A DNA stretch of 64,000 nt from Hyphomonadaceae bacterium (GTDB taxonomy: Bacteria; Pseudomonadota; Alphaproteobacteria; Caulobacterales; Hyphomonadaceae): positions 3,177,406 to 3,241,405 of the forward strand of contig OZ253505.1 in the NCBI GenBank assembly GCA_965262255.1, read 5' to 3'. The position numbers were made by a program, and so were the translations under genes. The notes under the pieces were generated by a model. That model had not been told where the DNA came from and searched no databases. It saw only the letters and a list, made by a program, of their open reading frames with translations. Positions 3,161-56,248 of the stretch are shown here, one piece after another; position 1 is the first letter of the stretch, and each line of letters starts with the position of its first letter.

Positions 3161-3170
3161 GGACGAAAAA

Positions 3171-3680: not shown

Positions 3681-3759
3681 TATGTTACCTGTACCATTTG
3701 CTATTCTGGTGTCAGGCCCTTTTCGTCTAGGATCACCCACATTTATGGCGATGTTTGAG

Positions 3760-3885: not shown

Positions 3886-4005
3886 GCAGCTTGTTATTTT
3901 GTCCAATGTACGTTAGGACAACAAAGATTTCCGTATGTGTTTCCCAATACTTGAATTTTTATAGACTCAACGTTATATGAAATCCATTGAGTAAGGAAAA
4001 ATATT

Positions 4006-5104: not shown

Positions 5105-5114
5105 ACTATATTTG

Positions 5115-5216
5115 CCGAAGGGAAGATCCCCTTCTGTAGGTGTTAAACTGGTACCTAAAGTATGGGGCGATCTTCCCCTCTCTGAGAGACCTAGTTTCCA
5201 TAATTAGTGAACCAAT
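5115..5216. repeat. Hairpin repeat family, copy b (same orientation as copy a)
   Basis: agggaagatcccc ... gcgatcttcccctctctgagagacctagtttccataattagtgaaccaat is nearly identical to copy a. Confidence 0.85.
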
Positions 5217-5290
5217 TCATTCGCTTGCATTTATTTTAAAATAGCTATAAACTTACTCATCCTATCATCCTTCACCCCTCGGCAAATGTA

Positions 5291-6057: not shown

Positions 6058-6390
6058 TCAATCTAACTGTCGTAAATCATTGGGTGCGATTTCATGGAGA
6101 GTGCAAATCCTTAGAATAGTTTTGTCGATTAGCAATTGAATCTCGCTAAGATTTGCTCCCGTAGAGCAACGCTCAGCAACCAACAACTCCGCCAAATAAT
6201 GACAGAGCCAACGGCTTAGGACATTTCCTCGTGCGCTAATCTTCATTTTTTGAAAAATTCTTTCTCCAAGTGCCAAAGTTTCGTTCGGCGCCTTCAATCT
6301 CTCCAGATCCTCTGAGGAGCAAGATTCGCACGAATGTAACCTCATTTTCGCTTTTTGAACCAGATAAATGCCTTTGTTGCTGTCGCTCAT
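6058..6390 (-). CDS. Small conserved protein overlapping the 3' end of the giant STAND gene
   Basis: The ATGAGCGA start and the 155-nt out-of-frame overlap are both conserved in the paralogous locus (22231..22599). The non-overlapping part is conserved at protein level: RWLCHYLAELLVAER vs RWLCHYLSELLITER. Confidence 0.65.
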   Translation of the reverse strand: MSDSNKGIYLVQKAKMRLHSCESCSSEDLERLKAPNETLALGERIFQKMKISARGNVLSRWLCHYLAELLVAERCSTGANLSEIQLLIDKTILRICTLHEIAPNDLRQLD

Positions 6391-9300: not shown

Positions 9301-12300
9301 TTTGCGCTGCTTCGCGTACCTTCAGGTAGAAAGACCTATACAATTCTTTGTGAAGTAGGATCCTAGGAGCAATCCTTGTTAAGTTCAGTAACCATTGATT
9401 GCCGGACACAGTCCAAATTGCGGTCATTACGTCATTTTTTAGTCTTTGTTCTTTCAACAACACGGTTAAACTATATGCTGCTCGAGATCTTAACATCGCG
9501 AAGTCATGATCCAGATAGTTTTGCCACCACCCAGATTTAAGTTCTCGGCAACTCTCGTGAAGTAACTCAGTTACTTGATTTGACGGAACCTTACCTGCGA
9601 GTATTCGGGCTCTCGCAACATAAACCTGACCTATCACCGAAACTTGCTCTCGAAGTCTCCGATCGCGTTGCTTGACTTCATAGTTATGTTGATTCCGTCC
9701 ACCTTTTTGAGATTCAGGGCGGTCAATCAGAATTTTGGACAAATCAGTTTGTTTGTCCTCAAGACAATTCGAAAGTGTAAAACATCGGACAATTGCATCG
9801 ATTAGAGAATCATCGTGTTCCTTCACTTGGTCGATTCGGCGAATCTTTGGATCCAGAAATAGTTCCAAAACCTGATTAACAACTTTGTTTTCCTTGTCGG
9901 ATGCCGATAAAATCTCAACACCTGTTAGCAACGTGTCGAAGATATAAGACACAAGAGCATTGTTTTCAAATGTTCTGCTTAACACGGGAGATCTGATATT
10001 CAATCGTCGTAGTAGAATTTTGAGTCCGAGTGATAACCGGGCGTGGTCGATCTTACGTCCGGCCAAAGCAAGGGAAACAAGTACAAAAATTGACTTTGAA
10101 ACTGAAAGCGATTCCGCTAGCTGCTCCATTAACTCGAAACGACGCTCTTGTCCCAGTCTTTCTATAAGAAGCTTGGCCGAAAGAACTAAAGATCTAAGTG
10201 GACGAATACGGCGAAGTCTTGCAATGGTTGCCTTCGCGCCAGATTCAAGTAATTCAGTGTAGAGTAAGCAAGCCATGTCCGCAGCGGATAAAACCGGGTC
10301 GATCGAAGTATCAGTTTCATTTTCGTCTGTTTCGAGATCGTATATTCGACGACTGAGCCAAGATTCAAATCGCCTTCTAAAATCACGAACTCCTATGAAA
10401 TCTTCATTTGCAGCACACTCAGCCATCATGTGAATTAGCAGTGGGCCTTGATTTTCCGTCTGTTGAGGATCGCTCAGAATTAGTCGACTACCTGACTCTG
10501 GAGCATGTTTGGCCGTCAATTGGGGATTTTCCGTAAGAAGTGACTGTAATATTGCTTCATTCTTCATCGCCTCCGCCCCAAGGAGTACGAATCGGAGAGT
10601 TCTTTCAGATTTTCCTGCGTCGCGACAAACACCTATTGCTAACTTCAGGCGCTGTGTTCGAACCTCTTGTCTTATCACAAGTTCAGCAACGGCATGGGCA
10701 TCTGGTTCTGGATGTTTTTGGACTAACTTCAAAAGACGTTTATGTTTTTTGGCAAGCTTCAACATCGGTGCAACGTTTATTGCTGCGTATTCGTCGGTTT
10801 TGTGCCTAGTCAGGAAGCGGTCTGCAACAGATGTCAACATGTCATCTATAAGAGGATCAGCAAATTTTCTAACGTACGCTTCAATATCTTCGTCAGCAAA
10901 TGTAACAAAATCGCCTTTAGATTTTACTCCGGGGTCTAAATCTATACAAAAATCTTTAGCAGCTTCCTGATCGATTTCCAAAACCTCTGCAATCTCGCAA
11001 ATTGGAATAGGTCTCGGCAAAACCGCTATACAAGCACAGAACTTTTGCAGTTCTATCTTTATTCCCGCTTTTTTTCGTGCATCTTGGAAAATACCATCAA
11101 ATATCTGGTTCAGATCCTTACCCGAAGGTTTCAGTAGATCAATTCTCTTTTCTATCGGCAGGGTAGGGCGTTCTAGCGCATAACCTTGCATCCTTGGAAC
11201 GCCATCTGAAAGTTCGTGGAGCTCATTTATCCAACCCTGAGGAGCATCCCAGTATCCTCGGGCATTTGCCGCTGTCTCTTCTAGAACAAATTTCTCTAAT
11301 TCAATTTTCACATAATCGTCTGGTATTTTTAGTTGTTCCAATCTGCCGCTTCGCGCACTAACTATAAATCGAACATTATTGGGAAGAACTTCATAAGACA
11401 TAAAATCGTAAATAAAATTTCTTTCGACTGAGCCTCTTTCTCGCGCAGCATTCTCAGAGTTGTCAGCCGCATCTATAGCAATCAACAGTAACGCCTCGCT
11501 GCTTCTTAAAGAAATTAGTTTTGCGAATTTTTCGAGTCGATGTCGAAAAACTTTAGCGTAATCAGTATCAGCACGTGCTGATAACAACAATGGCATTCGC
11601 AAGCGAATCGCGATTTCGTTACACATCTGTACGAATGCATCCTGCGGTCGATGGCGTAGCGAACTAGCATCAAGATACGACCCTCCTCCGTAGCAATCGA
11701 AGATCACCATCTCAGATTCTTCTGGTAGACACTTCTCTAATTGCGCCAACGTTGTCGTTTTACCAATGCCGGCCGCGCCATGAAGGCAAATCTTCTGTTT
11801 TCCAGCCAGCAATTGTTTGGTAATGTTTTTGGTGGAACTTCGCTTGACACAAGAATCGCTACTCTTGATCTTCGACGGACAAGGGAGCAACGCTCGCAAA
11901 TCCGAAACTCCGAACTGAGCTAAAACCCTACCACGATCTATATAGTCGTTAGAGCTGTCCGATATCATCTGACGGCGAACCATTTCCCGAAGTCGGCGCG
12001 TTACTTCTGCGGATTCGATTTCAGTCCATTGGGCAACCTCGTCAAAAATTTTGCATTCAAACGCAAATCGTGATCCTGCCTCGCCTGATAAGTCAAGAAC
12101 CTTGGCAAATTCTTGAAACTCATCGGCGGAAAGACCGCTCGCCTCAAAAATCCTACGAAGATTATTATAGTCCTGACTTTGAGAATTACGTCTTTTAGCA
12201 TGTAGCCCTTGCCGCGCAGATTCTATCGCCGCCAACAAACCGTCACAAACAGGTTGATTCGTTATCAATGATACTCCTATGGAACTGAAATCTTTTTCTG

Positions 12301-13306: not shown

Positions 13307-14464
13307 TCATTTCGCAAAAAAGTCGAGAATCTTTTGAATTAAGCCTGTCCGTATGTCAACTTTCTTCGTTCTGAATAACTCAGCACATTCTCTATTGCCA
13401 TGGCTAAGTTGCCATTCCCATTCATCTTGGTCTTCATTATAGCCAATCTCGTAAGCAATTTCATATGCAGTTTTACCGTCGACGTTTCTAAGGTTAAGAT
13501 TAACATTACTGTCTAAATCGACCAATTCTCTACATGTGTCAGTCACTTCTCTAATTCGTTGTGCGGCAGACAACTCAATTTTACCATTTGAATCAAATTT
13601 TTCAGACGAGTCAAAAGAAGGATGGAGAGCATAATTTCCGGCTGCAATGTGAAGTGGAGAGACGTTGCTATATTCATCTGGCATATCTATCAAATCTGGC
13701 ATTTGTCCGTGTCCGAAATATTCAGATTCGACGAGCATAGGCAACGAAACTGAAAGATTTGGATACATAAAGCGTTCTGAAAGTTTTTTACCGGTTCGGA
13801 CATTCACAGTAGCCCCGTAATAGCCGAGAATTCTGATCGCATGCGGGTTGGCTGTTTCTGCTGCGAGGTGCATTGGCGTGACATTTCCTCTGTTCTTGAC
13901 ATTAACTTTAGCTCCATAGTCAATCAGAAGCCTCATCAAACCTGTCTCTTCTAGTTCAGTCGCAAGATGAAGTGGAGTATTTCCTACTGAGTCACGGGCA
14001 TTTGGATTCGCGCCATTCGCGAGTAAAAACTTGACGTTACTTATGACTACTTCTCTGTGTTGATACAAATTTGCAGTCAGCATTGCCTCAAATAATGGGG
14101 TAGCTCCAAAAATGTTCTTTGCGTCGACCAAGCTTCCTTCATTGAGCAGATATTCCATTATAGGTATTGCTCCATGGTATTGCGATACCTGGTGTAACGC
14201 AGTTCTCCCAAATTTTTCGTCTTTCTCATTCGGTTCTCTGTTTTCGTACCCGACGCACTTCGTAACCCAATCTAATGGCCGAGAGTCTAGAAATGACCAC
14301 CCATTCGATCCCCAATCTATAAAGTTTTGAAACTTTAGCATCCATTTGTCAGAACATTCGTAGTCACTGTATTCGTCAATCCAAGAGTCTCCCTTAGCTT
14401 GGAGAACGCTCAGAGTAAGTACCGTTAGAAGCGTATAGATTGCAAAAGTTACCGTAATTCTCAT
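13307..14464 (-). CDS. Secreted ankyrin-repeat protein
   Basis: The N-terminal signal-like segment is MRITVTFAIYTLLTVLTLSVLQAKG. Ankyrin units: GRTALH, GATPLFEA, GNTPLHLA, NVTPMHLAA. Confidence 0.8.
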   Translation of the reverse strand: MRITVTFAIYTLLTVLTLSVLQAKGDSWIDEYSDYECSDKWMLKFQNFIDWGSNGWSFLDSRPLDWVTKCVGYENREPNEKDEKFGRTALHQVSQYHGAIPIMEYLLNEGSLVDAKNIFGATPLFEAMLTANLYQHREVVISNVKFLLANGANPNARDSVGNTPLHLATELEETGLMRLLIDYGAKVNVKNRGNVTPMHLAAETANPHAIRILGYYGATVNVRTGKKLSERFMYPNLSVSLPMLVESEYFGHGQMPDLIDMPDEYSNVSPLHIAAGNYALHPSFDSSEKFDSNGKIELSAAQRIREVTDTCRELVDLDSNVNLNLRNVDGKTAYEIAYEIGYNEDQDEWEWQLSHGNRECAELFRTKKVDIRTGLIQKILDFFAK

Positions 14465-15409
14465 TTGTCTCTAACTCGCCGAACTAAACTGATTGCAGAC
14501 TAATGTCTGTGGCTCTCAGATGTTCAAAATGAAGGTGACTATTTCACTTATTCCTCAATGACATTGCACTCTTTGCTTTACAGCCGAAGGAAACTAAGTG
14601 TTTACCAACGTCTGTGTGCGGCCCTGTACAAACGTTCCTTAGTTCAGAATAATTATTGCGCGAGTTCAATACATACAGATTCTTCAGGAAACTCCCACAG
14701 TTTCGGAGCGCTATACAAGCATTAGAATATTATGCCACAGAAAGTTTAGAAATTGCGAAAGTAATAAATTTTTGTACATTTTCCCCGGACCGAATATTTA
14801 CCCTCGGTCATTGCTAGCGGTAAAGCGTAATCCCCACTTCTCATATGTTGGTGAATAAACATTAGTTTCCCTTGTATACGCAGACGCGATCGGAGGGTCA
14901 AAGTGACCTGGACGGATGTATGTCCTCCACTTGGCCCAGCTTACAGGATACACTTTCACGAATATCGCAAGCAAAAGCATAGCGGTGTGTCAGAAACGCT
15001 CGTTAACCGCATAACAGCACTTTGTCGCGCCGCGATTCGAACCCTTGGTCGGGTAAAGTCCAATCGTCTAAATTGACAGGAATCACTAAGGGTTCCGAGG
15101 TTTTCTTAATCTTATGTGCTGTAACCAACTTACTAAGCATTCCGCCCACACAATAACTTCGCTACCTAAATTCTGGGCTTGAACAGTATCTCTGAATACT
15201 CCCGATCGAATTCTAGTTGCCGCGGATACGATAACCTTTTGGTCGCAGTAAGTTTCAAGTGAAGTGTCGAGAGTTGCTTCTCCCAGATGAAACTCGCCGC
15301 TCCGAGCCACTTGTTATGGGCGCATAACACTTTTCCTCTATTTGTTGCTGTGCAGTCCTTGTCCACCATGGATTTATGTCAATTCCAATACATTCGCTGT
15401 ATCGGCTCG

Positions 15410-16560
15410 AAGACATATGGAATCTAGGTCTTTTTGAAAAAAGGGAAGATTGCCCTATATGTAGGTAAACATTAACCACCTAACAAAGGGTATCTTCCCA
15501 TGCGACTAATTTACATGAGACCACTAATTTTTCAAGCCTCAGCGTCAACGCGGGCGAGGTTAGCGGAAAAGGGTATGACTCCAGCCAAGAAGATGGAGCT
15601 GGAACGGGTTCGTAAGGTTAATCTCTGGTTAACATTGAGGAACGAAAAAGACATGGGCGCGAAAGAGGCAGCAGAAGCGGTAGGTGAGACTGTTGCCAAT
15701 CTGTATCGCTGGCAGAAAGACCCAGCAGTTCATTCGACGCGCCCGAAGACACTGCGCGAGTCGAAACGAACTCCTGAACTCGTCGAAGCTGTGAGACAAC
15801 TCCGTCTTGAGCAGAAAACTTGGGGAAAGGAGAAGATCGCCAGAAGATTGCAAGAAGAAGGCTTTGATACCAGCATTGCGACAGTCGGGCGCATCCTTAC
15901 TGATCTGATTGCAAGAGGCAAAGTCCAAGCCTATGATCATTTTATTTCCGGGAGCCGAAAACGTCGAAAGAACAAGTCTTCCCGTCCGCATGCCATCCGA
16001 TTACCGAAAGGGTTAAAGCCGACGATACCAAGAGAAATTATTCAAGTGGACACAGTTCATGTCGAGCTCCCTGACGGAACAAAAATCTATCATATCAACG
16101 TCATCTGCCCGGTTACTCGTGTTTGCTATGGGAGACCTTCACGAGTGCGAGCGCAAAAAATGCCAGCCTCTTCCTCAAAAACATGATCGACTATATGCCC
16201 TTCAACGTTCAGGCGATCCAAACAGACCAAGGCTCTGAGTTTAGAGGGGAGTTCGAAACAACCTGCAAAGACTTAGGCTTGACACTCTACATTCTTCCTC
16301 GGAAATCTCCTAAACTAAACGCTCACGTTGAACGCCTTAACAGAACTTGGCAAGAAGATTTTTATAACTGTTGGGAGTTCAGCAATCATACTCTCGAAAT
16401 GATCAATCGTAACATTGAGTCCTATACCAATCACTATAACTCTGAACGGTATCACAAAAGCCTAGATTTACTCACTCCATTCGCCTATCTGGAGAAATAT
16501 TGGCCGTCTCTCCTCGCGTCCGGTGACTAAGTCACCCCTTCTCCCTCGAATGTAGGGAAA
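15410..16560 (+). mobile_element. rve (integrase-core) IS, IS481/IS3-superfamily-like; its left end is the hairpin repeat (copy c)
   Basis: The hairpin repeat at 15410..15535 runs directly into the transposase reading frame. A related motif, cgaatgtagggaaaccttaataac, follows the stop at about 16540. Confidence 0.55.
15575..16530 (+). pseudogene. rve-domain transposase, interrupted by one frameshift near 16125..16150
   Basis: Frame 1 reads ...IIQVDTVHVELPDGTKIYHINVICPVTR. Frame 2 reads SASAKNASLFLKNMIDYMPFNVQAIQTDQGSEFRGEF...PKLNAHVERLNRT. The two frames (15500..16186 and 16123..16530) together make one integrase core. Confidence 0.75.
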
Positions 16561-16898
16561 CCTTAATAACGACTCTCCTGAGGTATTATCAGTCAACGCG
16601 AGCATAACGTCATCCAATGGGGCACTAGGTTTGTTATCTGCGACCTAGTCGACACAGACCGTTGCCAATGGCCATAGGGACTTTAACCGCACACGATTAG
16701 GCAATTACTTTGCGGCGAGGGGGCGGAACTATGCGACTATGGAAGGGAGATACCTAAGGACTCTCGAATCCCTTATAATCGCTCGTTAACTCCTGCTACC
16801 GTCTGCAAAAATCGGTCAAAAAATTATTGGGAACAGTACAGTGACTAGAGAATAATACCAGACTTTACTTAATAACTAAGCAACAATCTGCTTAAAGT

Positions 16899-33109: not shown

Positions 33110-33985
33110 ATGTCCCCGACCAAAGTTCACTTTATAAACGTAGGCCAAGGCAATATGGTCTTAATCCAGTCAGAAACTGGTCACAACTTCCTAATGGACT
33201 GCAACGTTACAGAAGTTAATCAACACAGGGTTCTCGCCTATGTTGGGGAACAAATTGGCTGGAGATCGCCAATTACGGCTTTCATATGCTCCCATAGAGA
33301 TGCAGATCACATAAGGGGGATAGAGAAGGTTCACGAAATTTTTCCGATTCAGGAAGTTTGGGACTCAGATTATCCGGGCACAGCAACCGACTCGCCAGAG
33401 TATCGTAACTATATGTATGTCCGTAGCCACCTGCCGAATAGGCGTGTCATTAGTTGCCGCGACCCCTTTATTTATGGTTCTACTAAACTGCTATGTCTTT
33501 CAGCGCAAGACAAGAGACTCGAAAAGAGTGCCAATGCCCAAGGGATTGTATTGAAAGTGGAACACCGCCTTAGTTATTCGAACTTATGTGTTGGAAGCGT
33601 CATGTTGACGGGCGACAGCGACGCAAGTACATGGAAGGACGGGATACTAAAAGATTTTCATCCAAGTGTACTGAAGTCTGATATCCTGATGGCTGGGCAT
33701 CATGGATCTGACACTTTTTTCGAGAGTTCAGCTGGATATGCATTCGATACACGTTATACTTCTCACATAGAGGCAATTTCTCCGGATATGTGTGTTATAT
33801 CTGTCGGTTCTAACGGATACGGGCACCCGGACAGAAGAGCATTAGATATTTATGAACGTTATAGCCGAGGATCTAAGAATGGGATGAAGATCGCGAGAAC
33901 TGATCTCCAAGGTACAATAAGGCTCGAGATAGGATTATCGTCGACGCAAAACGGAGGGAACTGGGAAATGAAGTTCTTTTGCTGA
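33110..33985 (+). CDS. Metallo-beta-lactamase-fold protein (ComEC/Rec2-type MBL domain)
   Basis: VHFINVGQGNMVLIQ, CSHRDADHIRG, LTGDSDAS and LMAGHHGSD follow the ComEC-type MBL motif order. Confidence 0.7.
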   Translation: MSPTKVHFINVGQGNMVLIQSETGHNFLMDCNVTEVNQHRVLAYVGEQIGWRSPITAFICSHRDADHIRGIEKVHEIFPIQEVWDSDYPGTATDSPEYRNYMYVRSHLPNRRVISCRDPFIYGSTKLLCLSAQDKRLEKSANAQGIVLKVEHRLSYSNLCVGSVMLTGDSDASTWKDGILKDFHPSVLKSDILMAGHHGSDTFFESSAGYAFDTRYTSHIEAISPDMCVISVGSNGYGHPDRRALDIYERYSRGSKNGMKIARTDLQGTIRLEIGLSSTQNGGNWEMKFFC

Positions 33986-35520: not shown

Positions 35521-37800
35521 TCACCATTCTTTTGCAACTTCAATTCGAGCTTTAAGTTCAACAGCTTGTTCTTGTAACTTACCTGGTTCCATTTTAATCG
35601 TATCTAATCTTTCGATGGCCTTTTCTAAGTCGATGAACATTCTCAGATCACTTAGAGAAATAGACCAACGATCACCAAACTCGCTCGATGATTGCATCGT
35701 AGAAAATATTTCAATAAATTTAAGTAAGTAGGAATCATCCTTAATGGTATCTTCTATCCACAATCGCATCTCAGATTGCTCGACATCATCGGCTAGATCG
35801 TGCCATGCGTAGAACACCCACTTAGATTCGAAAACACTAAATATGAAATTCTTATCTCGGATCAAGCGTCTAATTATGCGCAATGCTGTTTCTTTTAGAG
35901 TAGCTAGTTCACGTTCATTCATCCAATTTGGTTCGTCAAAACTTTGATCGAAAGGAAGCGTTCCATGTATCTTTAATATATTACGAATGAAAAACAGAAT
36001 CCAAGATTTAGACTGACCGTTCTCAAGTGTATCGAACATCTCTGTCATTCTAATTTGACTTGCAATTGGCTTTAGCAAAGTAATTGTAAGCGACTGTGCC
36101 TTCCAAAACATGATATATTCTTTGTTATATGCATCTGACTTAGTGTCTGCTATCGGATCGATAGAATTTACCAAAACCTTAAACACACTCAATCGATCGG
36201 CGTCAGACATTTCGTCGTTCTCAGCCATTGACTCGATTAATTCGATTATTCTTTCAGCTTCAGTTCCTCCAGAGGATAGTTCATTCTTAGATGCTCTTAA
36301 AAGTTCCTCAGCTAAATTGTCTGGCTGTTCTGTCGAATGCTTAATGAGATCGCTTATCTTTTCTAAACTCCATCCTAATGATACGTCTGCATAACTAAAA
36401 TAATTCCGCCAGTGAAGGTCGCTTGCTAGCCGTTTTGTCTTACGATTGTTGAAGACTTTCCTGTCGTCCACGGGGGTAAAAAGTTTAAACATATATCGAC
36501 TCTCGTTTTCATCCGCTTCTTCGTCTTTAGCAATAAGACGTTCAATCCCTGGTATAGCCCCGGCTAGCAACGGTTCAATACTTTCAAGTGTAGTGCCGTC
36601 TTCCTTACATGCTAGTATAAGGTTAGAGAGGTACCTACCCCTTTCTATTTTGAGTCGCTCTGGGTCTTCAAACAGATAAGAGTTCATACGTGCACTATAC
36701 ATACGTGCACTATACATACGTGAGTAGTCTCGAATCCAATTGTACAAACGTGGATATTTCATTTCCAGAGTCCATACAAATGTAGCGTCTGCTGGATCGA
36801 TTTTGTTCTCTGATAGACGTAAACGAAACGCCATTAGATTGAGTAGGCGAGAAATATCTCTAGGGTAACCAGCACTACCGACTTGAAACAAGTTTTGAAT
36901 TGTAAGATCGAGTCGTTTCTTACATTCAGAACTTAGTTCATCTATGGCAATTAGACGATATAGTTTTTTCTGTAGGTGTTGAGACAATATTGATGACGAA
37001 ACTTCAGGTACCTTTATAGGAAGTTGTATGATTTTCTCTAAGTAATGATGCCCATCGATACGCAAATGATCAGTTAGCATTTGTGCCACCTTGTCATGAT
37101 CGTAAGATAAAAGATATACAATGTATGGAAGGTTAGCCGTAGAGCGAACCAAGCGCAGTATATTCTGAATTTCTATTGGTTCCAGTCGATCAATGTCGTC
37201 AAGAACTACAAGAACTGGAGTTTTATGTTGGTTAAGTTGTTTGATGACATCTTCTTTGATATCCTCTAAGCTTCTATTGGATTTATTGGGACATAACCAT
37301 GATACGATAAGGTTAAAAACTTTTATCATAAAGCCTATAAGATTCAAGTTCGCCCAATCCAGGTTACTTAACTCTAGGTTTAAGCCGTGTATTGTCTTTG
37401 AGACGTACTTTGCATAAGTGCGAAGTGTATCGATTTGTTTTTTGCTCGAGCTCTTCGATCTGATTTTTTCCTCCAAAGCAGGCAGAAATTTCGCCAGAAT
37501 AGATTCATGGTTTCCAATAATCCATGGAGAATATTTTAGGACTATATGATTCTCTGTTCTGTTTGGTCTCTCAAGATTTCGAAGTACTAAGTTTATCAAT
37601 GATGTTTTTCCTGATCCCCATGGACCAGTTACCCCAAGGACGAGGCTGTCAGGTTGCTTAAAAGATCCAACGATTAAATCGGAGACAACTTTAGCTTGGA
37701 TCGAAAACCTGAAACTATCATCTTCCTTTTTGTTTATCGGAACATCCGCGCTGAGCGATACGTCGGTGGTATTATCTGTCATAGAATAATCCTTCATCAA
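35521..37800 (-). CDS. KAP-family P-loop NTPase
   Basis: VLGVTGPWGSGKTSLINLV is the Walker A in the KAP-typical G.WGsGKT context. VLVVLDDIDRLEP is the Walker B. A hydrophobic insert, LNLIGFMIKVFNLIVSWLC, lies between them. Confidence 0.8.
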   Translation of the reverse strand: MMKDYSMTDNTTDVSLSADVPINKKEDDSFRFSIQAKVVSDLIVGSFKQPDSLVLGVTGPWGSGKTSLINLVLRNLERPNRTENHIVLKYSPWIIGNHESILAKFLPALEEKIRSKSSSKKQIDTLRTYAKYVSKTIHGLNLELSNLDWANLNLIGFMIKVFNLIVSWLCPNKSNRSLEDIKEDVIKQLNQHKTPVLVVLDDIDRLEPIEIQNILRLVRSTANLPYIVYLLSYDHDKVAQMLTDHLRIDGHHYLEKIIQLPIKVPEVSSSILSQHLQKKLYRLIAIDELSSECKKRLDLTIQNLFQVGSAGYPRDISRLLNLMAFRLRLSENKIDPADATFVWTLEMKYPRLYNWIRDYSRMYSARMYSARMNSYLFEDPERLKIERGRYLSNLILACKEDGTTLESIEPLLAGAIPGIERLIAKDEEADENESRYMFKLFTPVDDRKVFNNRKTKRLASDLHWRNYFSYADVSLGWSLEKISDLIKHSTEQPDNLAEELLRASKNELSSGGTEAERIIELIESMAENDEMSDADRLSVFKVLVNSIDPIADTKSDAYNKEYIMFWKAQSLTITLLKPIASQIRMTEMFDTLENGQSKSWILFFIRNILKIHGTLPFDQSFDEPNWMNERELATLKETALRIIRRLIRDKNFIFSVFESKWVFYAWHDLADDVEQSEMRLWIEDTIKDDSYLLKFIEIFSTMQSSSEFGDRWSISLSDLRMFIDLEKAIERLDTIKMEPGKLQEQAVELKARIEVAKEW
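36685..36722. repeat. 15-bp in-frame tandem duplication inside the KAP gene
   Basis: catacgtgcactata occurs twice, followed by a partial copy. It encodes YSRMYSARMYSARM. Confidence 0.9.
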
Positions 37801-38681: not shown

Positions 38682-39590
38682 TCAATCTACCTCTTGCGTT
38701 TCCGGATACGATTCAGGGATCGCATTAACTGAATTCATTCTTTGTAGAGCGTTCGCAGACCTTGTTCGGAGCCATCCGCAATTCTCAGTTGTAAACACCT
38801 TTGCACCGCGATGCATGAACCCACGTATGACGGCTTTCTTCGGGTGTTCATCGTCATCTCTCGAAGCACATACGTATGCTTTTTTGTTCATATCATCAGG
38901 TGAAACTCTACTCGGACTCTTTGCTCCGAGCAAACAGTCCAATAAGAATTCATCAACGTTCCGTCTAGAACCATGGTGAGGAACCTGAATTTTCGAACCG
39001 TGTTTCAAGGGAAGTCTCAATCCAGCTTGATGGGAACTGTTGATAACATTCCTAAGTGCACTCCTTCCCGCGTCTCCAGTTAACAATATATCGACACCAT
39101 CGAAATTTGCCCACTGAACTACACTCATTTCGTTCTCACAGCTTGTTTCCTCTTTCTGGAAATATTCAATACCCCATTTATCCCTTAGCCAAGGATTAGC
39201 CGTTCGTAACCCTCTATTAGGGCTCTCATCAAATTTGTTTATAACTTGGTCTGGAGTTTTTTCAGACTCCAAGAGCATACTGCAAAAGTGTTCTGCGGTA
39301 GGCGAAACAACCTTGAATTTGCCGATTTTTTGCCTAAGGAACGGTTCACGAACTTCAATCCCTCTATCCAACGCAAATTTTTCTAGTTCCGCCAGATTTG
39401 AGTAAGTTTTTCTCAGTCTTTCTGCCAGATTCCTCGGGTTTTGAAATCTTTTGAAATAGGGTAGCAGTTTGTCCTGACTCGGGACATATTGCAGAGAGAT
39501 GAGAGTTACTGTAGTGGGGATTATGCTACTTGGAAAGGCTACGAATGGATACCGTATCGTAAGTTCGACCAACAATCTGGTTAGCGTCAT
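38682..39590 (-). pseudogene. MBL-fold (ComEC-type) protein, 5'-truncated by a hairpin repeat copy
   Basis: VDILLTGDAGRSAL...KIQVPHHGSRRN is the C-terminal MBL block. The N-terminal metal motif is absent. The first codons run into repeat copy e. Confidence 0.55.
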
Positions 39591-47065: not shown

Positions 47066-47171
47066 ATTTTGAGAAGCCAGCAAGTTCGACAAACCTGACG
47101 GGTTAGGTAGATATCCAAGTTTGTAACCATCTGTTCCTATACACTCTGATCTCGCCAACCAGATGACTATA

Positions 47172-47188
47172 CCCCCCCCCCCCCCCCC
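47172..47188. repeat. C17 homopolymer
   Basis: Counted directly. The paralogous copy at about 54040 reads ccccctcc. Confidence 0.95.
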
Positions 47189-47360
47189 GAGAGATGCTTC
47201 GCGATCTAGACAAACCAGTGTATCTAAAAACTGCTCTAACAATTACGTGAGCGGAGAGAGTTTTTCTTGAGACGGAACTTCCATCGCATCTCGTTGACGC
47301 TTATAATCTTTGATGCTCATTGATAGGTTCCTAATAGAAATTAAGACGGTTGTGTGTGTT

Positions 47361-47369
47361 GGGGGGGGG
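47361..47369. repeat. G9 homopolymer preceded by (tg)4
   Basis: Counted directly. The paralogous copy at about 54198 reads ttggagg. Confidence 0.95.
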
Positions 47370-47641
47370 AGCTTGATTGCGATAAGTGTTTTGAGGGTAT
47401 TATAAAATCCCCTGAAAACACTTTTTCCCCAAATTTGAATTTCCAGACTTAGGCGAAAAGTTGAGTCTAGGCGTAGAATCCTGTTGAACAGTCGAATTTT
47501 CTATGGTTTTTCGCTTGGTATTGTTACTCCGCAACAGTTTGATTTTTTTATTTTCGCATGGTTTTTGCCTTGAAATATCCTTGCTCAATGTCCATGTAAA
47601 CTGGGATTATGTTATGTATCTAATTTCTGGGAGTATTAATC

Positions 47642-48622
47642 TTGATAAATGTTGTCTGCTCGTATTCGCACGAGGATGAGATCTACTGCGCAGAATTGGT
47701 AAAACACCTAAAGCTAATGGAATCTAAAGGCCTCATCAACACTTGGCATGACAGGAAGATAAAACCTGGCCAGGTACTTGACGAGGAAATAGACGAGGCA
47801 TTTTCTTCGGCTGATATTATTCTATTGCTGATTAGCTCTGACTTTTTTAATTCTGACTACTGCCGCGAAACAGAGATGCCAAATGCGCTCAAGCGACACG
47901 ATGAAGGCAAATCTATAGTAATTCCAGTTATTCTTCGCTCGTGCGACTGGGCAGACTCCCCAGTCGGAAAGTTACTTGCAGTCCCGACGGACGGTGAGCC
48001 GCTGAGTCAGTTTTCAAACATTGACGATGGGCTTGTTCAGGTAGTGGATGCTGTAAAGAAAGCTCGAAAAGTTCTTTTGCAGAGGAAAGAGGAGTCTGGA
48101 AACCGAATAACTTCTTCTTCCAACAAAACAAACTCAAATGAAGAGAGTTCGCTCAATTCTCGGAACACGTTCATCACTAGATCAAAGAATCTCGAAATCA
48201 GGAAAAATTTTACTGATCGTGATTACGAACTTGCGTTAAAAGAGTGTATTCGCTTTCTTGGAGAGTTTTTTACGAATTCATTAGCGGAATTGTCTAACTC
48301 GAACGGCGAGATTGATTATGACATTGATTGGCATGGCAATGATAGGTTTGAGTGTAAAATCTATGAGAATGGACGAAGTGTAAGCCATTGTCACATTTGG
48401 CGTGTACGAGATGAATTCAGTCAGAACGAAATTCGATACTATAGCGGAGAGTGGTCTATGGGCACTCATAACTATAGCATGTCTGCAGGTTCAGACGGGA
48501 GATCAATCGGATTCGAAGTCGTCGTAGGGAGGACTTTCGATGCCGAGCCAGAGAAATTGTTGAGTCAAGTAGAGGTGGCAGAATATTTTTGGGCGAATTT
48601 TATTGAACCGTTACAAATTTAG
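47642..48622 (+). CDS. TIR-domain protein with an unassigned 170-aa C-terminal domain
   Basis: VVCSYSHEDE...ADIILLLISSDFFNSDYCRETEMPNAL...VIPVILRSCDW is a bacterial TIR pattern that includes the conserved Glu. TTG start. Confidence 0.8.
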   Translation: MINVVCSYSHEDEIYCAELVKHLKLMESKGLINTWHDRKIKPGQVLDEEIDEAFSSADIILLLISSDFFNSDYCRETEMPNALKRHDEGKSIVIPVILRSCDWADSPVGKLLAVPTDGEPLSQFSNIDDGLVQVVDAVKKARKVLLQRKEESGNRITSSSNKTNSNEESSLNSRNTFITRSKNLEIRKNFTDRDYELALKECIRFLGEFFTNSLAELSNSNGEIDYDIDWHGNDRFECKIYENGRSVSHCHIWRVRDEFSQNEIRYYSGEWSMGTHNYSMSAGSDGRSIGFEVVVGRTFDAEPEKLLSQVEVAEYFWANFIEPLQI

Positions 48623-48949: not shown

Positions 48950-49618
48950 ATGAAATTTATCTACGTTGATGAAAGCGGAGACCGCAGCCAAGGAGAGGTC
49001 TTCGTGATGGGCGGGCTAATGGTGGATGCTTACAAACTTCGCAAGAAGACTGCCGATGTATATGAACGACTTAAAAGGTTATCAAAACAGCATGAGGGAG
49101 AAAAGTTCGAATTAAAGACCAAGAGATTTATAGAGGGTAGGGGAGGTTGGAAAAGCATAAGTAGATTGGAGCGTCAAAATATACTTTCTGGCTTGATTCG
49201 TGATGCTTTGCATGGGGGATCAGAAGTATTCGCTATTGGGCTAACATTTAAGGCGTTTGACAATGCAAACAGTAGTAATCTCGGTCAACCGTTCGGGAAA
49301 AATTACTGGGTTGGGTCAGCAATGTTCATAAGCGCGCTCGTTCAAAGACAAAATCAAAAGCTATCTGGCAACAAAGGAAATACCGTATTTATAGTCGATG
49401 AAAACATGCACGAAACTTCAAAACTTTCCGATTGTTTAGTCCCGCAAACAGGTTGTCAGGATGATATACTTCCATTATACAGCAATTCTATCTTTAGGAA
49501 ACAGTTATGGGACAGGTATTACACCCCAACGCAGTCACTACCCATGCGATTAGAAAAGAGATCCAAGAAGCGCCCTCATCGGTCTCAGATCGCGCATTAT
49601 CAAGGCGCTACGGATTAG
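48950..49618 (+). pseudogene. DUF3800-family protein, 3'-truncated by IS481 insertion at about 49461
   Basis: MKFIYVDESGD is the DUF3800 signature start. From about 49461 the frame is IS481 left-end sequence. Confidence 0.6.
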
Positions 49619-50512
49619 GCTTGCCAACAGTTCAGAAATGGCGTAGGCGGGGTTCTGTTGAAGATCGCCGTTCTGGCCCTCAAGAGCCTCGGCCAAAGAG
49701 TTTGAGTAAAGCAGAGGAAGCCGCCTGTGTTTATTTCCGGACGACAACACAGTTGTCGTTGGATGACTGTTTGTATTCTCTGCAAGACTCAATTCCCCAT
49801 TTAAAGCGATCGAATCTCCATCGTGTATTTCAGAATCACGGGATATCAACACTTCCAAAAGAAGAAAACAAAACTCGCGAGACGAAGAAGTTCAAAGAGT
49901 ATCCGATCGGTTACTTCCACGTCGACATAGCCCAAGTCAACACCGAAGAAGGTCGGCTCTATATGTTCGTAGCCATCGACCGCACATCGAAATACGCCTA
50001 CGTTGAACTGCACGACAAATCGACGCGAGAAGTCGCAGTTCAGTTTATCGAAACCTTGGTTGAAAAAGTGCCTTACACTATCCATACGATCTTGACTGAC
50101 AATGGCAGTCAGTTCACTAATTCGAGAAACCCTAAGGTCTCGGTGCAAGAAAACGAATCACCCGATCATAAAATCAATAAGGATGTCAAATGCAACGCAT
50201 TTGACGCTGTTTGCTCAGAGAATAATATCAAACATAAGTTGACACTTCCCTATCATCCCTGGACGAACGGACAAGTGGAACGAATGAATAGAACCATTAA
50301 AGAAGCTACTGTAAAAAAGTATCACTATGAGACACATGACAAACTGAAAGAACACATCCAGTGCTTTATCGATGCCTATAATTTTGCTAAAAGGTTAAAG
50401 GCTCACAAAGGTTTAACTATCTTCGACTTTATTAACAAATGTTGGAAAGAGGAACCAGAAAGATTCATCAAAAATCCTGACAACCTGTTTGCGGGACTAA
50501 ACAGCTACCTAA
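49461..50512 (+). mobile_element. IS481-family IS, copy 2 (right end degenerate)
   Basis: The left end atgatatacttccattatac and the whole body are near-identical to copy 1. The right end reads tgtttgcgggactaaacagctacc. Confidence 0.7.
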
Positions 50513-50610: not shown

Positions 50611-52019
50611 GCACGAAAATTCCCGGACAAAAACAATACCGCGGAACTTTGGTTTATCAAACACCGTTGGAAAAGCGGCGCTGAATGCACTCAATTCAGT
50701 AGCAAGCGAGTAACAGAACGGAAAAAAGTTGATAAGCGAGCGTTTAGTTGTAGGGACTGCCGTAAAGACATCAGTTCGAAGTGTGGTTTCCTTATGCATA
50801 AGTCCAATATCGGATACTGCGAGTGGGCTGTCGCACTATTGATAATGACGACCAATATCGATGGACCGTCCAGCACGAAGTTAGCTTAAGATCTTGGGCT
50901 TATTCAAAAGTCGGCATGGTTAATAGCTATGCATATTCGTGAAGCCTACCTAGGTCATGATCCTATATTGCCAGAGACTGCTGTAGAAGCTGATGAAGAG
51001 TACTTTGGCAGAGTTGAAAAGCACAAACACGAAGACAAGAAGCAGAATAAAGGTCGCGGTGCATTTAGCAAGATCGTGGTTGTAGGTATGAAGGAACGAG
51101 AAGCACGCCATTTTAGCAGCGAAACCCGTCTCAGATTTGCCCGAAGATAGACTGCAAGTCTTCATTCAAGATAATGTCAAAGAATGTAGTCGTGTCTATA
51201 CAGACGAGCTCAAGTCGTACAACGGACTGAAAGATTACGGCTACTAACACCGCGCGATCAAGCATTCGGCAGGATAATGGGGGAAGCAATCGTACACGAA
51301 TGGCATAGAATCTTTCTCGGTGTTACAGCGTCTTTCATATCAAGGAATGCACCACTGGTTGTCGGCTAAGCACCTCGCCTCATACGTCAATGAGTTTGCT
51401 ATACACTCTAATCTGAGGGGTGAAAACACAACGAACTTCGTGGGTCATATAGTCCGTGAGATGTCGAGGAAGCGATTGTCGTGGAAGGAGTTGGTAGCAC
51501 GGGGGCCTCTTCCCGCAGGGTAAGATCATTATGGATATTGAAGACACGCTGGAAAATGTTTTGATAGCAATGTCTGGTGGGCCTGTCGGAAATCTTCAGT
51601 GAAAAGTTGCGAACACAACAGTCCAGTCTGTATGGGTAATGGGTATGCACACGAGACAAAAATAAAGTAAACAGCCTATTTGTAGACGTTCATGGATGGT
51701 AACTCCCTAATGTAAGGGGTAATCGTTGAGTAAAGTATTTTGTAGAATTCAAGGGAGCTCTGATTTTGCTACTGCAGAATCGGAGAATTTGTTTGACATT
51801 CATCATTTGCTAGCAACTCGGTACAATGACAAAATCTCATCGTAGAACCGAATTCGTTTTCGACGAAGTGTTGAATCGGCTGTTTTATTGGAGCCGTGTA
51901 CGTTCCCGGAGGACTCATTCGTTCCAAATTTTTCATAGACTCAAATCTCTTTGTCCAAATCAAGTATCGAGCTCGTGGATGCTAGCACTAAATGTCAGAA
52001 AGTAAGTAATTCCCAAAAT
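50590..52019 (+). pseudogene. IS1595-family element, decayed copy lacking its left end
   Basis: Broken frames read WFIKHRWKSGAECTQFSSKRVTE..., EADEEYFGRVEKHKHEDKK and HHWLSAKHLASYVNEF. The right IR agtaagtaattcccaaaatt ends at 52019. Confidence 0.8.
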
Positions 52020-52072: not shown

Positions 52073-52855
52073 TCACAGCCGATTCAGTAAATACTGTCTT
52101 ACAGTTTCTGCAAAAGCATCGATTTCAACTGATGAAACTAGCATCAATTCGTATAACGGTTTTAGTTTAGGAAAAACTATCGGCAATATCTCTCCGTCGG
52201 GTGTGTTACTTGGAATAACTACGGACATTTCGAATTTGTCTTCGCAAATTTTCTTGTGAGATTCAAACAACCATCTTTCATTACCACGTATCCAAGAATT
52301 CGCTACCCGTCCATCGAGTCCAGACCATTTGAAAGCCAAGGTTATTCTACCAACTTCTTGATTGAGGTTCATCGCCTGACCGTATCGAATCGCGATGATT
52401 GACGAAGCAAGAACATCAATCACTGGAAGATCAACATCGATACCAATGAACGGCTTTCTTTTCTTTCTTCCATGACTTCGGTCGTCGTCGTCCGCTAAAG
52501 TTCTTAGGTGATAGAACTCTCCCTTTGTCGAAAATCGATTGAATCTTATAGAATCAATAGAACCTTGTTCATCTTCGGAATAACAATGAGTCTCAAATCC
52601 GTCACTTAACTTATTGGTCTGATAGTATTTCCCACCAACTTCGTCGTGAAATGACCATGAATGATAATCGCCAACGTATGGTGTCGCTTCTTGAATCGTT
52701 TGGATGAACTTTGCCTTGTCAATGGAACTTGGCTGGAATTCCTCAAACCTAGCTGCAACCTCAAAAAGACCGTGCGAGGGAAAATTCTTTCCTTCAGTTT
52801 CAAGTCTCTTTTCTGCAAACCGACGACCGGTATTTAGAAGGGTGCTGGGATTCAT
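52073..52855 (-). CDS. Hypothetical protein, translationally coupled partner of the TIR gene
   Basis: Its ATG overlaps the TIR TGA as ATGA (52852..52855). I recognised no family motif. Confidence 0.6.
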   Translation of the reverse strand: MNPSTLLNTGRRFAEKRLETEGKNFPSHGLFEVAARFEEFQPSSIDKAKFIQTIQEATPYVGDYHSWSFHDEVGGKYYQTNKLSDGFETHCYSEDEQGSIDSIRFNRFSTKGEFYHLRTLADDDDRSHGRKKRKPFIGIDVDLPVIDVLASSIIAIRYGQAMNLNQEVGRITLAFKWSGLDGRVANSWIRGNERWLFESHKKICEDKFEMSVVIPSNTPDGEILPIVFPKLKPLYELMLVSSVEIDAFAETVRQYLLNRL

Positions 52856-53511
52856 GTTCTTTCCTTACATTTTTTGATCAATGTTTTTTGTACCGTCGCT
52901 ACGCTATCAGTATTCCTTGCCAAGATTCCATTATGGTTTTCCGCAGTTCTTGATGTAACAGGAATCGAAACTTCAGGCTCGGTAGTTCCGGCTAAATTGG
53001 GACTAATGAGCGGAGTAGTCTTCTGTTCCGTGTTTTTGGTCGCATTATATTTCTGGAGTAGTTTATTTGCCGCATCCTTTACGGCTAGTACTACCTCGAG
53101 ATATGCTTCATCGCTATTTTCAAACGTACTGATTGCTATACCATCTTTTGGAACAGCCATAAGTTTACCAAATGGCAGTTCTTCCCAGTTGCAGGGGCGT
53201 AGGATTACTGGTATCACGATTGCGTCCCCTTTCTCTGATCGACCCAACGCATTCTCCATCTCAATTTCATAGCAAAAATCCGAGTGTATAAAGTCAGAAC
53301 TGATCATGAGAAGGACTATATCGGCAGAATTAAAATTTTTGCCGATCTCACTCTTGAAATCCGACCCGGCATCAATATATCTGTCGTACCACAGATCAAT
53401 CAATCCTTGGCGACGAAAGGAGCTTAGATGCTTTTTCAGGCAGTCTACACGTTGTTCGTCTTCATGAGCATAAGAAATAGCGAGTGACAACAATGCACGT
53501 TCTCCATTCAT
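52852..53511 (-). CDS. TIR-domain protein
   Basis: LAISYAHEDE...ADIVLLMISSDFIHSDFCYEIEMENAL...VIPVILRPCNW is paralogous to the TIR domain of 47642..48622. Confidence 0.8.
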   Translation of the reverse strand: MNGERALLSLAISYAHEDEQRVDCLKKHLSSFRRQGLIDLWYDRYIDAGSDFKSEIGKNFNSADIVLLMISSDFIHSDFCYEIEMENALGRSEKGDAIVIPVILRPCNWEELPFGKLMAVPKDGIAISTFENSDEAYLEVVLAVKDAANKLLQKYNATKNTEQKTTPLISPNLAGTTEPEVSIPVTSRTAENHNGILARNTDSVATVQKTLIKKCKERT

Positions 53512-53710
53512 CTAGCGTAACGGAACAGTCTGAATATAAGTTGAATTTAGGAGTTTTCAAGTAAACTATAACGACTATCTAAAGTAGAATCGGATTGAAC
53601 AGTATCCCATAGGGCGAAGGAGCGGCGATGAGAACTAGTTGGTTGGGAACTACATCGGCGGCCATTAATTTTCCTAATCAGAATTTCAGAGAGATGTTTT
53701 CTTAAAAATT

Positions 53711-54290
53711 CTACTTGTACCATTCCTCAAACTTGTGTAATGAGTGTCCCATAACTTGTTCCTCCAGATGGAATTGCTGTAGAGTACTATAACACGAGTT
53801 TGCAGAATGGTACATATATACACCCTTGATATAGCATTCTGCAGCAACATTCAGTAATGCCCCACTACTCCGCTGACCGCAGTTCATTGTGTACGGGTAT
53901 AGCGGTGTGTCGACAGAACCCGATAATTTGGAAGCCAGAAAGTTCAACGAGCTTGATGCGTTAGGATCACCGTCAGGTTTGTAACCATTCCTATAGCCAC
54001 TGATCTCCCCAACCCGATGACCATACCCCCTCCGAGAGATGGATCTCGATCCAGACGAACGACAGAATCTAACAGCTGCTCGAAAAGCTCCTTAAACGGA
54101 GAGAGATTTCCATGAGACGGAACTTCCATCGCATCTCGTTGACGCATATAATCTTCTATGCTCTTTGATAGGCTCACGATAGGGATCAATACGATTCTTG
54201 GAGGTTACTTGATTGCGAGAAGCGTTTTCGGGGGATCTTAAAATCCCCTGAAAACGCTTTTCCCCAAATCGGAATTTCCAGACTTATCAG
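53711..54290 (-). pseudogene. IS256-family left end and decayed N-terminal third of the transposase
   Basis: The terminus taagtctggaaattc is at 54290. FKELFEQLLDSVVRLDRDPSLGG then ...ECYIKGVYMY... is a degenerate eMYv.GVS block. Confidence 0.65.
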
Positions 54291-54430: not shown

Positions 54431-56248
54431 CCCTAATTATGCACGACTTGCACTATTTTTGGAGGATTGTCAAGAAATTTCACGAAAAATCGGCAAAAAA
54501 TATCGAATTTTCGAGATGAGTCTAAAAATTTCAGATTCGATCGGACGATTTCAAACGTTTTTGGTGAGGTTGCTCAGATTTTGTGTTGAAAACGGCCAAA
54601 ATCCACCAGATTCCACCAGATTCCACCAAATTCACCTATTTTTGGCCGCAGGAATGCTGTCTTCGATCAGGAACGGCAGGGATTTCTAAGTTTTTGACGA
54701 GTGTCAGATAGACTGACGTTTTAGAGGTTCTGTTTTACGTATGTTTTCAAGGATTTTCTGTAATAGTAAGTACTCAGGGAACGAACTGCTAAAGGCAAAG
54801 TGTAATCTGTTCTCGGTTTCATAAGACAGGGTTGCAACTTTTAGTAGATTTAGCTGCAGACAAGGTATCGCACTTGTTTTCAAGTATGATTTGCCAGGGA
54901 TATGATCGCGAAGGAGAACAAAATACCAATGAGCGGCTGTGTGAAACACTTGGCGCACCTGATTTGCCTTAAATGATGTGCAGGACATACGATCACTTTT
55001 GAGGTAATTCTTATGTTCTTTGATTAAATTTTCCGCTTGACCTCTTTTGCAATAGACTTTTGAGTATAGATATTTAGCAGTGCGTTTCTTAATGGATGTA
55101 ACTATGAATCGCATTCTGGTGCGAATTTTACCATTTTCTTTTGTCGACCGAATAACTGCGATGACTCGTCTTTCTTTGCCGTTCCAACTCTGGGCGGCGT
55201 ACATGAATTCGCAGTATGTCGATCTTGTTACCTTCTTATAGCGACTCTCCGCGCACTGTTGTTCACACTCAGCAACGGCCTTCTTGACACACGGTTCAGA
55301 CTTTAAGCGGGAATTTGAAGACAATCCGGTAATATAATCTATCCCCTTCTGGGCTTCACACCAACTAAAGAAGTTTGGACGGGCATAATGGCTGTCACCC
55401 CGTATATAGATCCTGGTTTTCGGCCAGAACTGACGGATTTTCTTTAGCACAGGACAAACAAGCTGTTGAACCTCTTTATCACTTAACGTTCTTGCCGGTC
55501 TCATTTTTACGACTATAACACAGCCGCGATCAATATCATTCAGGTGTATTGGTCTAAAACCTTTTGCTTTGTCGTAGCCACTAAAAACCGAACCTTGTTG
55601 ATCGCCATACGTTTTGCAGATCGTTTCATCAACATCTATGAAAATCTTTTTCGGCGGTGAACTATATCCGTGGGTGCAGTATATTTCAACGTTGTAGTCT
55701 AAAAGACTTTCGACATCCTCTTCCTGCAATGAGTTTTCCATCCTTGACAGAGTCGCCTGACAGGCTAACTCTTTTAAACTCGATGGAAGTATCCGTAAAG
55801 CGGCTCTGAAAATACTATCCTTCCGTAACGTGTTTAAATCATTACAGTCTTCATAACCCGCTACAATCGCTAGTATCCTGAAAAACAGAATATCGAATAA
55901 ACTATGTATGACCTTCACCGGATCTCGAGTATCCTTCCATTTTTTAACCAACCCTTTGACAATCCCAAACCTTTTCTCAATCGCCACAGGTATTGCTAAT
56001 CCACCATTCGAACTAATAGGATTTGCACTATTGTCCGCTGTAACCTCTACACCGTCGATATCGTCGAATAGTTTAAACGTTGAATTTTTTGAACTCATGG
56101 GAGGGGGTATCCCTTACATTGAGGAGAAGAACACATAGCTTCTCATATAATCACTAAATCCGTAAGTACAATATGTTAAACTTGATGCGAACGGTGAAAT
56201 AATGTCGCAGGCTCCCCCGGGAATGTGAACTCTCGTGCATAATCCGGG
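54431..56248 (-). mobile_element. IS1380-family IS
   Basis: The inverted ends are ccctaattatgcacga (54431) and tcgtgcataatccggg (ending at 56248). Confidence 0.75.
54704..56098 (-). CDS. IS1380-family transposase
   Basis: SNGGLAIPVAIEKRFGI...ILAIVAGYEDCNDLNTLR...IFIDVDET...IRGDSHYA are typical IS1380 N-terminal and DDE blocks. Confidence 0.8.
   Translation of the reverse strand: MSSKNSTFKLFDDIDGVEVTADNSANPISSNGGLAIPVAIEKRFGIVKGLVKKWKDTRDPVKVIHSLFDILFFRILAIVAGYEDCNDLNTLRKDSIFRAALRILPSSLKELACQATLSRMENSLQEEDVESLLDYNVEIYCTHGYSSPPKKIFIDVDETICKTYGDQQGSVFSGYDKAKGFRPIHLNDIDRGCVIVVKMRPARTLSDKEVQQLVCPVLKKIRQFWPKTRIYIRGDSHYARPNFFSWCEAQKGIDYITGLSSNSRLKSEPCVKKAVAECEQQCAESRYKKVTRSTYCEFMYAAQSWNGKERRVIAVIRSTKENGKIRTRMRFIVTSIKKRTAKYLYSKVYCKRGQAENLIKEHKNYLKSDRMSCTSFKANQVRQVFHTAAHWYFVLLRDHIPGKSYLKTSAIPCLQLNLLKVATLSYETENRLHFAFSSSFPEYLLLQKILENIRKTEPLKRQSI

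Follow-up and report, generated by a model that had tools for sequence, protein, structure and literature searches.

A TIR gene and an uncatalogued partner in a Hyphomonadaceae defense island as a candidate two-gene form of single-chain head-sensor defense proteins

A TIR gene and its partner overlap at an ATGA junction

Many bacterial immune proteins combine a killer enzyme with a sensor, and most of the sensor domains are unnamed and their triggers unknown. We analyzed a 64,000-nucleotide (nt) stretch of a Hyphomonadaceae bacterium genome (contig OZ253505.1, positions 3,177,406 to 3,241,405; hereafter ‘the window’), in which two neighboring minus-strand genes encode a 219-amino acid (aa) TIR protein and a 260-aa partner. 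We refer here to this partner, and to the domain family to which it belongs, as ‘X’. Both open reading frames were present as first read (Table 1), and the coupling of the two genes through an ATGA, reported in a first-pass annotation of this DNA, could be confirmed in the sequence: the minus-strand sequence across the junction is AAGGAAAGAACATGAATCCC, the TGA stop of the TIR gene (52854-52852) overlaps the ATG start of the X gene (52855-52853), and a Shine-Dalgarno-like AAGGA motif lies 6 nt upstream of the X start. This layout suggests that translation of the two genes may be coupled. Because both open reading frames have clear homologs and the pair recurs elsewhere (see below), we do not consider the pairing a product of chance. 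Upstream of the TIR gene there is also a promoter-like site (Table 1), which is a pattern match only, such sites being no more frequent in the region than in shuffled sequence.

The upstream protein matched Pfam TIR_2 (3.7e-15) and the PADLOC ThsB1 model PDLC00420 (1.1e-56, limited to model positions 4-154 of 319). In a PDB search, E84, the second Glu of the FCYEIEM motif, aligned with the NYELD-motif Glu of AbTIR (7UWG/8G83), which we take to be the catalytic Glu of that enzyme; AbTIR is a nicotinamide adenine dinucleotide (NAD+) hydrolase. E84 is also invariant among the TIR orthologs found at two other loci (L001 and L002, described below). The earlier description of a stand-alone TIR domain with a conserved Glu is borne out by these matches, and proper alignment did not leave the domain without its catalytic residue. 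Judged from its sequence, the protein is ThsB-like, essentially stand-alone and apparently catalytically competent. It ends in a low-complexity tail (Table 1), which is equivalent to the linker of fused TIR-X proteins.

X is a constant C-terminal module carried by exchangeable heads

X itself matched nothing in Pfam, PADLOC or NCBIfam; the first-pass annotation had recognized no known Thoeris-effector motif in it, which agrees with these searches. PHROGs was the only library to hold the family (phrog_38563, 6.4e-14, with the match falling on the C-terminal half of the profile), and its function is listed there as unknown. Close relatives are scarce (5 among 5.8 billion clustered proteins), and a metagenome scan with the close-family X alignment gave no match. 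A profile search of 1.84 billion representative proteins returned 162 relatives, counted as clusters at 50% identity, with 34 of them at E≤1e-10.

In most of these relatives X occupies the C-terminal half, at approximately residues 215-445 of ~465-aa proteins, and the N-terminal half is one of several heads. When the 101 relatives with a length of 300 aa or more were scanned with Pfam, 66 were assigned an SLFN_AlbA_2 head, five a TIR_2 head (one of which also matches SEFIR, while two also carry a ParA-like ATPase), two a PNP_UDP_1 head and one a CAP12/Pycsar-type TIR head. Three further relatives (P0053, P0095 and P0121) have hydrophobic, membrane-like heads according to a simple hydropathy scan, which would extend the repertoire to putative membrane effectors; P0121 additionally has a zinc-ribbon-like CxxC...CxxC segment. 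The heads fall under PADLOC effector models (the cyclic-oligonucleotide-based anti-phage signaling system [CBASS] PN-superfamily effector, TIR effectors, the N-terminal part of bSEFIR, and ThsB), and the X region of the head-X relatives is covered by no PADLOC, Pfam or NCBIfam model. The Schlafen heads retain an invariant E17-x4-E22-x-K24, and E-x4-E-x-K is the catalytic motif of Schlafen tRNases (PMC13056530).

X is a discrete domain family of ~250 residues, a constant C-terminal module with exchangeable N-terminal heads, and the window X is a full-length member in which all invariant and near-invariant columns of the broad family alignment (A3) are retained. The domain is new to Pfam, NCBIfam and PADLOC; the logic of a killer head joined to a sensor is already known. 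Because X is fused to several unrelated killer enzymes as well as to membrane heads, we reasoned that it behaves as a sensor or regulatory domain and not as an effector. The genomes of at least 104 species carry Schlafen-X genes, with Proteobacteria, Cyanobacteria, Planctomycetota and Firmicutes among the phyla represented, and X-bearing genes were present in 11 viral contigs. None of 40 related genomes, drawn from the same genus, family and order, yielded a match to X, which is therefore accessory. This is a sizeable family, spread over many phyla and Burkholderia prophages, that has gone uncatalogued, yet is joined to at least five effector heads.

The window pair is a TIR-X protein in two genes

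The nearest fused relative of the pair is P0007, a 439-aa single-chain TIR-X protein (E=3e-95 to X), whose head matches PDLC00420 (1e-52), as does the window TIR, so that the two heads are of one type (38% identity). X begins in the window where the linker of P0007 ends. In P0007 both parts lie on one polypeptide, whereas in the window they are two open reading frames with an ATGA overlap: the window pair is a two-gene TIR-X, cut in the inter-domain linker.

Two further loci are organized in the same way. L001 and L002 encode X proteins 68% and 67% identical to that of the window (P0002 and P0003, respectively), each with a TIR gene directly upstream (47% and 61% identity to the window TIR, respectively). 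The spacing between the two genes differs among the three loci (-4 nt in the window, +2 nt in L001 and +5 nt in L002), and each has its own X start codon and purine-rich, ribosome-binding-like motif, which argues that the split is a maintained two-gene arrangement and not a fresh frameshift. By tblastx, the sequence common to the window and the L001, L002 and L004 loci ends at the two genes, and there is therefore no conserved third gene. A quick maximum-likelihood tree built from X domains gave the window clade a Shimodaira-Hasegawa-like approximate likelihood ratio test (SH-aLRT) value of 100 and placed P0007 as the sister of its split and stand-alone members. The head in this clade is the ThsB-like TIR described here, either fused (P0007) or encoded immediately upstream (window, L001 and L002). 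Elsewhere in the tree, TIR, PNP and Pycsar-TIR heads are scattered inside a main branch dominated by Schlafen heads, and heads have therefore been swapped repeatedly. The expectation that homologs of the partner would have TIR neighbors thus held in part: two of the three close loci and the P0007 fusion conform to it, whereas L004 and the mostly Schlafen-headed wider family do not.

We also considered whether the pair could be a decaying relic, i.e. a former TIR-X gene that was broken in its linker amid insertion sequence (IS) debris and has lost its function. The locus is indeed boxed in by IS remnants, its neighbors are visibly damaged (a DUF3800 gene is cut by IS481 and a RelA/SpoT gene is truncated), and a truncated, frame-disturbed X copy (P0004) exists at another locus. 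However, both open reading frames are intact at all three split loci despite protein identities of 47-68% and the differing junctions noted above, and the family-wide conserved residues of X and the Glu of the TIR are all kept, which makes such decay quite improbable.

X is predicted to be an alpha+beta domain with a fixed set of polar and aromatic residues

AlphaFold2 modeling of X from a 61-row alignment gave a mean predicted local distance difference test score (pLDDT) of 88.8 and a predicted template modeling score (pTM) of 0.89; this is the model used here, a run from four sequences having reached a pLDDT of 55.6. In the model, two tandem beta-alpha-beta4(-alpha) units are framed by a helix at either terminus, an arrangement that resembles the alpha+beta duplications of TBP-like or AdoMetDC-like proteins. 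Foldseek searches of PDB and BFVD with the model returned nothing at E≤1e-3, with TM scores of at most 0.25. The top match was a weak one, at E=6e-3 and TM 0.21, to the spermine synthase N-terminal domain, followed by further weak matches with E>0.01 (PYL2, PGM and a viral TBP) and weak ones to lipocalins. Sequence matches in PDB obtained through the X profile were discarded, since they were only compositional matches to designed helical repeats. The first-pass annotation had treated the partner as an unknown protein, and the domain is indeed uncatalogued and has no significant PDB or BFVD match.

The residues conserved across the whole family (alignment A3) are G29, E32, W67, E88, F105, G112, F114, Y115, R118, D122, D123, P135, D140, W177, L180, R183 and W188, and most of them lie on beta-strands of the predicted model. 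A polar and aromatic set held constant in this way is what one would sooner expect at a ligand-binding or catalytic site than on a protein-recognition surface that evolves fast. We raise, tentatively and as a rather doubtful proposal, the reading that X is an unrecognized receptor domain, with a fold that has no PDB representative, which would sense a small molecule or nucleotide, or a conserved host or phage factor, and would be an equivalent of SAVED, SLOG, STING or cNMP-binding domains. Were this so, the heads that X is able to drive would be of at least five kinds (Schlafen RNase, TIR, SEFIR/Pycsar-TIR, PNP nucleosidase and membrane helices), and the window operon would be a natural case of receptor and effector on separate chains, with control exerted in trans. 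If the bound factor were a small molecule, X would represent a new receptor class for bacterial immune signaling.

The pair lacks the second component of Thoeris

Type I Thoeris, as Ofir and colleagues are said to have described it in 2021, reportedly consists of a TIR protein, ThsB, and a SIR2-SLOG protein, ThsA. The pair resembles such a system in having a ThsB-family TIR with the catalytic Glu, which covers model positions 4-154 of 319, and in being a small operon in a defense island. It differs in the second component: X matches no ThsA model, has no effector domain and is elsewhere fused to TIR and other heads. In the 98%-complete genome we found no match to SIR2_2 (PF13289), LSDAT_prok/SLOG (PF18171) or PADLOC ThsA1 (PDLC00413-416), the four PADLOC searches being the weaker evidence, as control genomes gave no match to them. 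For lack of ThsA, the window pair is not a Thoeris system.

A looser version of this idea, proposed in the first-pass annotation, is that of a Thoeris-like pair in which infection would prompt the TIR to make an NAD-derived signal, and X would be a new receptor-effector whose binding of that signal kills or arrests the cell. It can draw on the best match of the TIR being to the PADLOC ThsB family, with the catalytic Glu in place, on the invariant polar and aromatic residues of X, which could form a ligand pocket, and on the use of TIR, membrane-helix and PNP heads by cyclic-nucleotide signaling effectors too. On the contrary, X has no recognizable killing domain or membrane segment, is in most cases joined to enzymes that produce no signal (Schlafen RNase and PNP), and occurs in phages as a single gene with no adjoining synthase, while the genome lacks ThsA, SIR2_2 and SLOG matches. 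We consider a signal maker with a new signal-activated effector unlikely on these grounds, and not the best fit to a domain that is found elsewhere on unrelated killer heads; the other role that the annotation had entertained for the partner, that of a sensor, accords better with a constant module on exchangeable effector heads.

A split head-sensor protein as the favored interpretation

We think it probable that the TIR/X pair is the split, two-gene form of a single-chain head-X defense protein, in which the TIR is the NADase effector and X the sensor or regulator. The TIR would cleave NAD+ in a manner dependent on E84, and X would hold it inactive until an infection cue is met, whereupon X would license self-association of the TIR. 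Self-association is needed by all characterized TIR NADases. NAD+ would then be depleted, and growth arrested or the infection aborted. As the cue, one can envisage a phage protein or, given the invariant polar residues on the X beta-sheet, a small ligand. In the two-gene form the separate chains would have to associate non-covalently, with X binding the TIR in trans, and the ATGA coupling would keep their amounts matched. Since head and sensor can be expressed, mutated and titrated separately, the two-gene form should also make a handy test bed.

This proposal is in line with the logic of Schlafen proteins with Ig-like sensors (e.g. RorSlfn5), in which the fused domain was demonstrated experimentally to recognize a phage protein (PMC13056530). 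Prokaryotic Schlafens (pSlfn) have been argued to be effectors and their fused domains sensors (Perez Taboada et al., Nat Microbiol 2026; PMC13056530). The similarity lies in a killer head with an exchangeable C-terminal sensor, most X relatives being Schlafen/AlbA_2-X proteins with an intact E-x4-E-x-K. The window pair is unlike them in that its head is a TIR and it is split into two genes; neither of its proteins matches SLFN_AlbA_2, the nuclease with the E-x4-(E/D)-x-K motif, and only the C-terminal module is shared with Schlafen-X proteins. Nor is X any of the tested Ig-like, HisKinase, HTH or DUF262 domains. Among the pSlfn fusions, 17% were unannotated and 1.5% were ‘TBP-like’ (PMC13056530), and X may be among these unannotated or TBP-like partners.

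A TIR-type NADase head with a controlling C-terminal domain is also found in bSEFIR, TIR-SAVED/Cap, TIR-STING and PycTIR proteins, and X itself occurs on SEFIR and Pycsar-type TIR heads (P0094 and P0098). However, according to PADLOC and Pfam, X is not a SAVED, STING or cNMP-binding domain, nor the C-terminal region of bSEFIR, and the window pair, with head and sensor as separate polypeptides, has no accompanying signal synthase. In the temperate Burkholderia phages phi1026b (gp78) and phiE125 (gp67), a single 464-aa gene joins a Schlafen/AlbA_2 head to the X domain, recognized by tblastn (1e-11; 24-26% identical, with 83% of X aligned); unlike the window pair, it belongs to the other main branch of the X tree. 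These phage proteins are annotated as ‘ATP-binding protein’ and fall into PHROG 38563. In both phages the gene (L008, 51973-53367 in phi1026b) lies near the genome end and adjoins genes for an HTH regulator and a RelE-like toxin. From its sequence and setting, the Burkholderia phage Schlafen-X is likely a prophage-encoded gene for defense against superinfection.

A tightly coupled two-gene operon on mobile DNA, with other toxin-like modules among its neighbors, could also be expected of a toxin-antitoxin-like module, in which the TIR would be a constitutive NADase toxin and X a dedicated inhibitor, freed or degraded under stress, without specific phage sensing. We regard this as improbable, as a single inhibitor fold would need to neutralize at least four unrelated enzyme folds, the dominant form of the family is a covalent fusion, which is a poor fit to a labile antitoxin, and the gene order is the same as the domain order of the fusion.

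Several observations nevertheless weigh against the split head-sensor interpretation. The TIR tail, which would correspond to the linker, is not conserved among the orthologs. L001 and L002 are not fully independent of the window, given that L002 shares its IS fragments and L001 a similar giant RelA/SpoT gene; both may come from organisms related to that of the window. An X protein 61% identical to ours (P0005, in L004) has no TIR neighbor, and for three stand-alone X genes (P0177, P0183 and P0089) no effector gene was found adjoining, indicating that split operons are not general outside the window clade. The conserved polar residues (E32, E88, R118, D122, D123, D140 and R183) could mean that X is an enzyme or a small-molecule receptor. 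Finally, only one of 10 sampled neighbors of Schlafen-X genes belongs to a known defense family (a dGTPase).

The last of these points, together with the occurrence of some X genes among metabolic genes and of several stand-alone X genes with no adjoining effector gene, would suit a role outside defense, e.g. in NAD or nucleotide metabolism or in regulation tied to a mobile element. Such a role is most improbable, considering that the head repertoire is one of known immune effectors, that X lies in accessory regions of prophages, that the window is a defense island, and that the family is patchy and accessory in its distribution.

With regard to L004, its X gene (6070-6849, plus strand) stands head-to-head with a gene for a 1387-aa protein (1784-5947, minus strand), of which an N-terminal HTH_3 is the only recognizable part, and this protein could be an alternative partner of X.

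The pair lies in an IS-ridden island with further TIR genes

The first-pass annotation had placed the pair between IS remnants, and these are present on both sides: IS1595 on one, and an IS481-like remnant and a repeated IS fragment on the other (Table 1). We infer that the TIR/X cassette is accessory and mobile, within an IS-ridden defense island. Among the defense genes of the window is one for PifA, which the F plasmid encodes for abortive infection; others specify PDC-M48B/LmuA-like proteins, a RelA/SpoT fusion and several methyltransferases. The two proteins that match PDC-M48B and, more weakly, LmuA (9.7e-72 and 2.9e-11) may be pieces of another defense module. The metagenome contig L001 likewise carries a RelA/SpoT gene similar to that of the window (989 aa, 13997-16783), in addition to a gene for a caspase-like Peptidase_C14 (10283-11278), and this content suggests a related organism or a shared island.

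Table 1. Features of the TIR/X locus and its surroundings (window positions, unless a contig is named).
Feature	Position	Strand	Description and evidence
TIR gene	52852..53511	-	219 aa; TIR domain at residues ~9-160; putative catalytic Glu E84; tail at ~160-219
X gene (TIR partner)	52073..52855	-	260 aa; uncatalogued domain, predicted alpha+beta
Gene junction	52852..52866	-	AAGGAAAG ribosome-binding-like motif at 52866-52859; ATGA stop/start overlap at 52855-52852 (sequence reading)
Promoter-like site	53533..53560	-	TTGAAA, 16 nt, TATATT; 10/12 consensus matches; ends 22 nt upstream of the TIR start
Left cassette boundary	50929..51523	+	Transposase remnants of IS1595 (ISXO2-like), frameshifted; both pieces match Pfam DDE_Tnp_IS1595
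Right cassette boundary	53735..54268		IS481-like 5'-end remnant (53735-53781) and repeated IS fragment (53931-54268)
IS481-like element	49433-50503		Perfect 30-nt inverted ends; repeat search
Intact DDE_Tnp_1_4 transposase	54704-56098		Pfam
PifA-like KAP P-loop NTPase	35521-37800	-	PADLOC PifA end to end, 8.7e-114
PDC-M48B match (LmuA more weakly)	38682-39590	-	PADLOC
PDC-M48B match (LmuA more weakly)	33110-33985	+	PADLOC
Paralogous TIR protein	47642..48622	+	326 aa; PDLC00420, 1.7e-89 over the whole model
X paralogue	L006:1399-2196 = G000:C1:3176539-3177327		Stands alone; IS fragment on one side, IS630-like transposase on the other

The window holds a second, paralogous TIR gene, whose 326-aa product has a TIR domain 49% identical to that of the pair (BLASTP 3e-49). 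A relation between X and the ~170-aa C-terminal domain of this paralog was examined and rejected (BLASTP E=0.79; hhalign probability 0.5%). The start of the window is preceded, at a distance of 80 bp, by a distant paralog of X itself (E=4e-18; 265 aa, 28% identical), which the X tree places with P0009 and P0010 in a sister group of the window clade. The IS fragment of the right boundary is one of three copies (47073-47432, 53931-54268 and L007:10712-10933; 74-84% identical, as between the first two), and a copy lies upstream of each of the three TIR/X loci, i.e. the 326-aa TIR gene, the TIR/X pair and the X paralog. Related copies are present in the metagenome contig L002 (1131-1579 and 9043-9477). 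The genome contains a third TIR_2 match (G000:C1:3164134-3164409, L024; 2.3e-6), in a 166-aa open frame that precedes the window by ~13 kb and the X paralog by ~12 kb. Taken together, these ~77 kb have the look of a single large island with an abundance of TIR genes.

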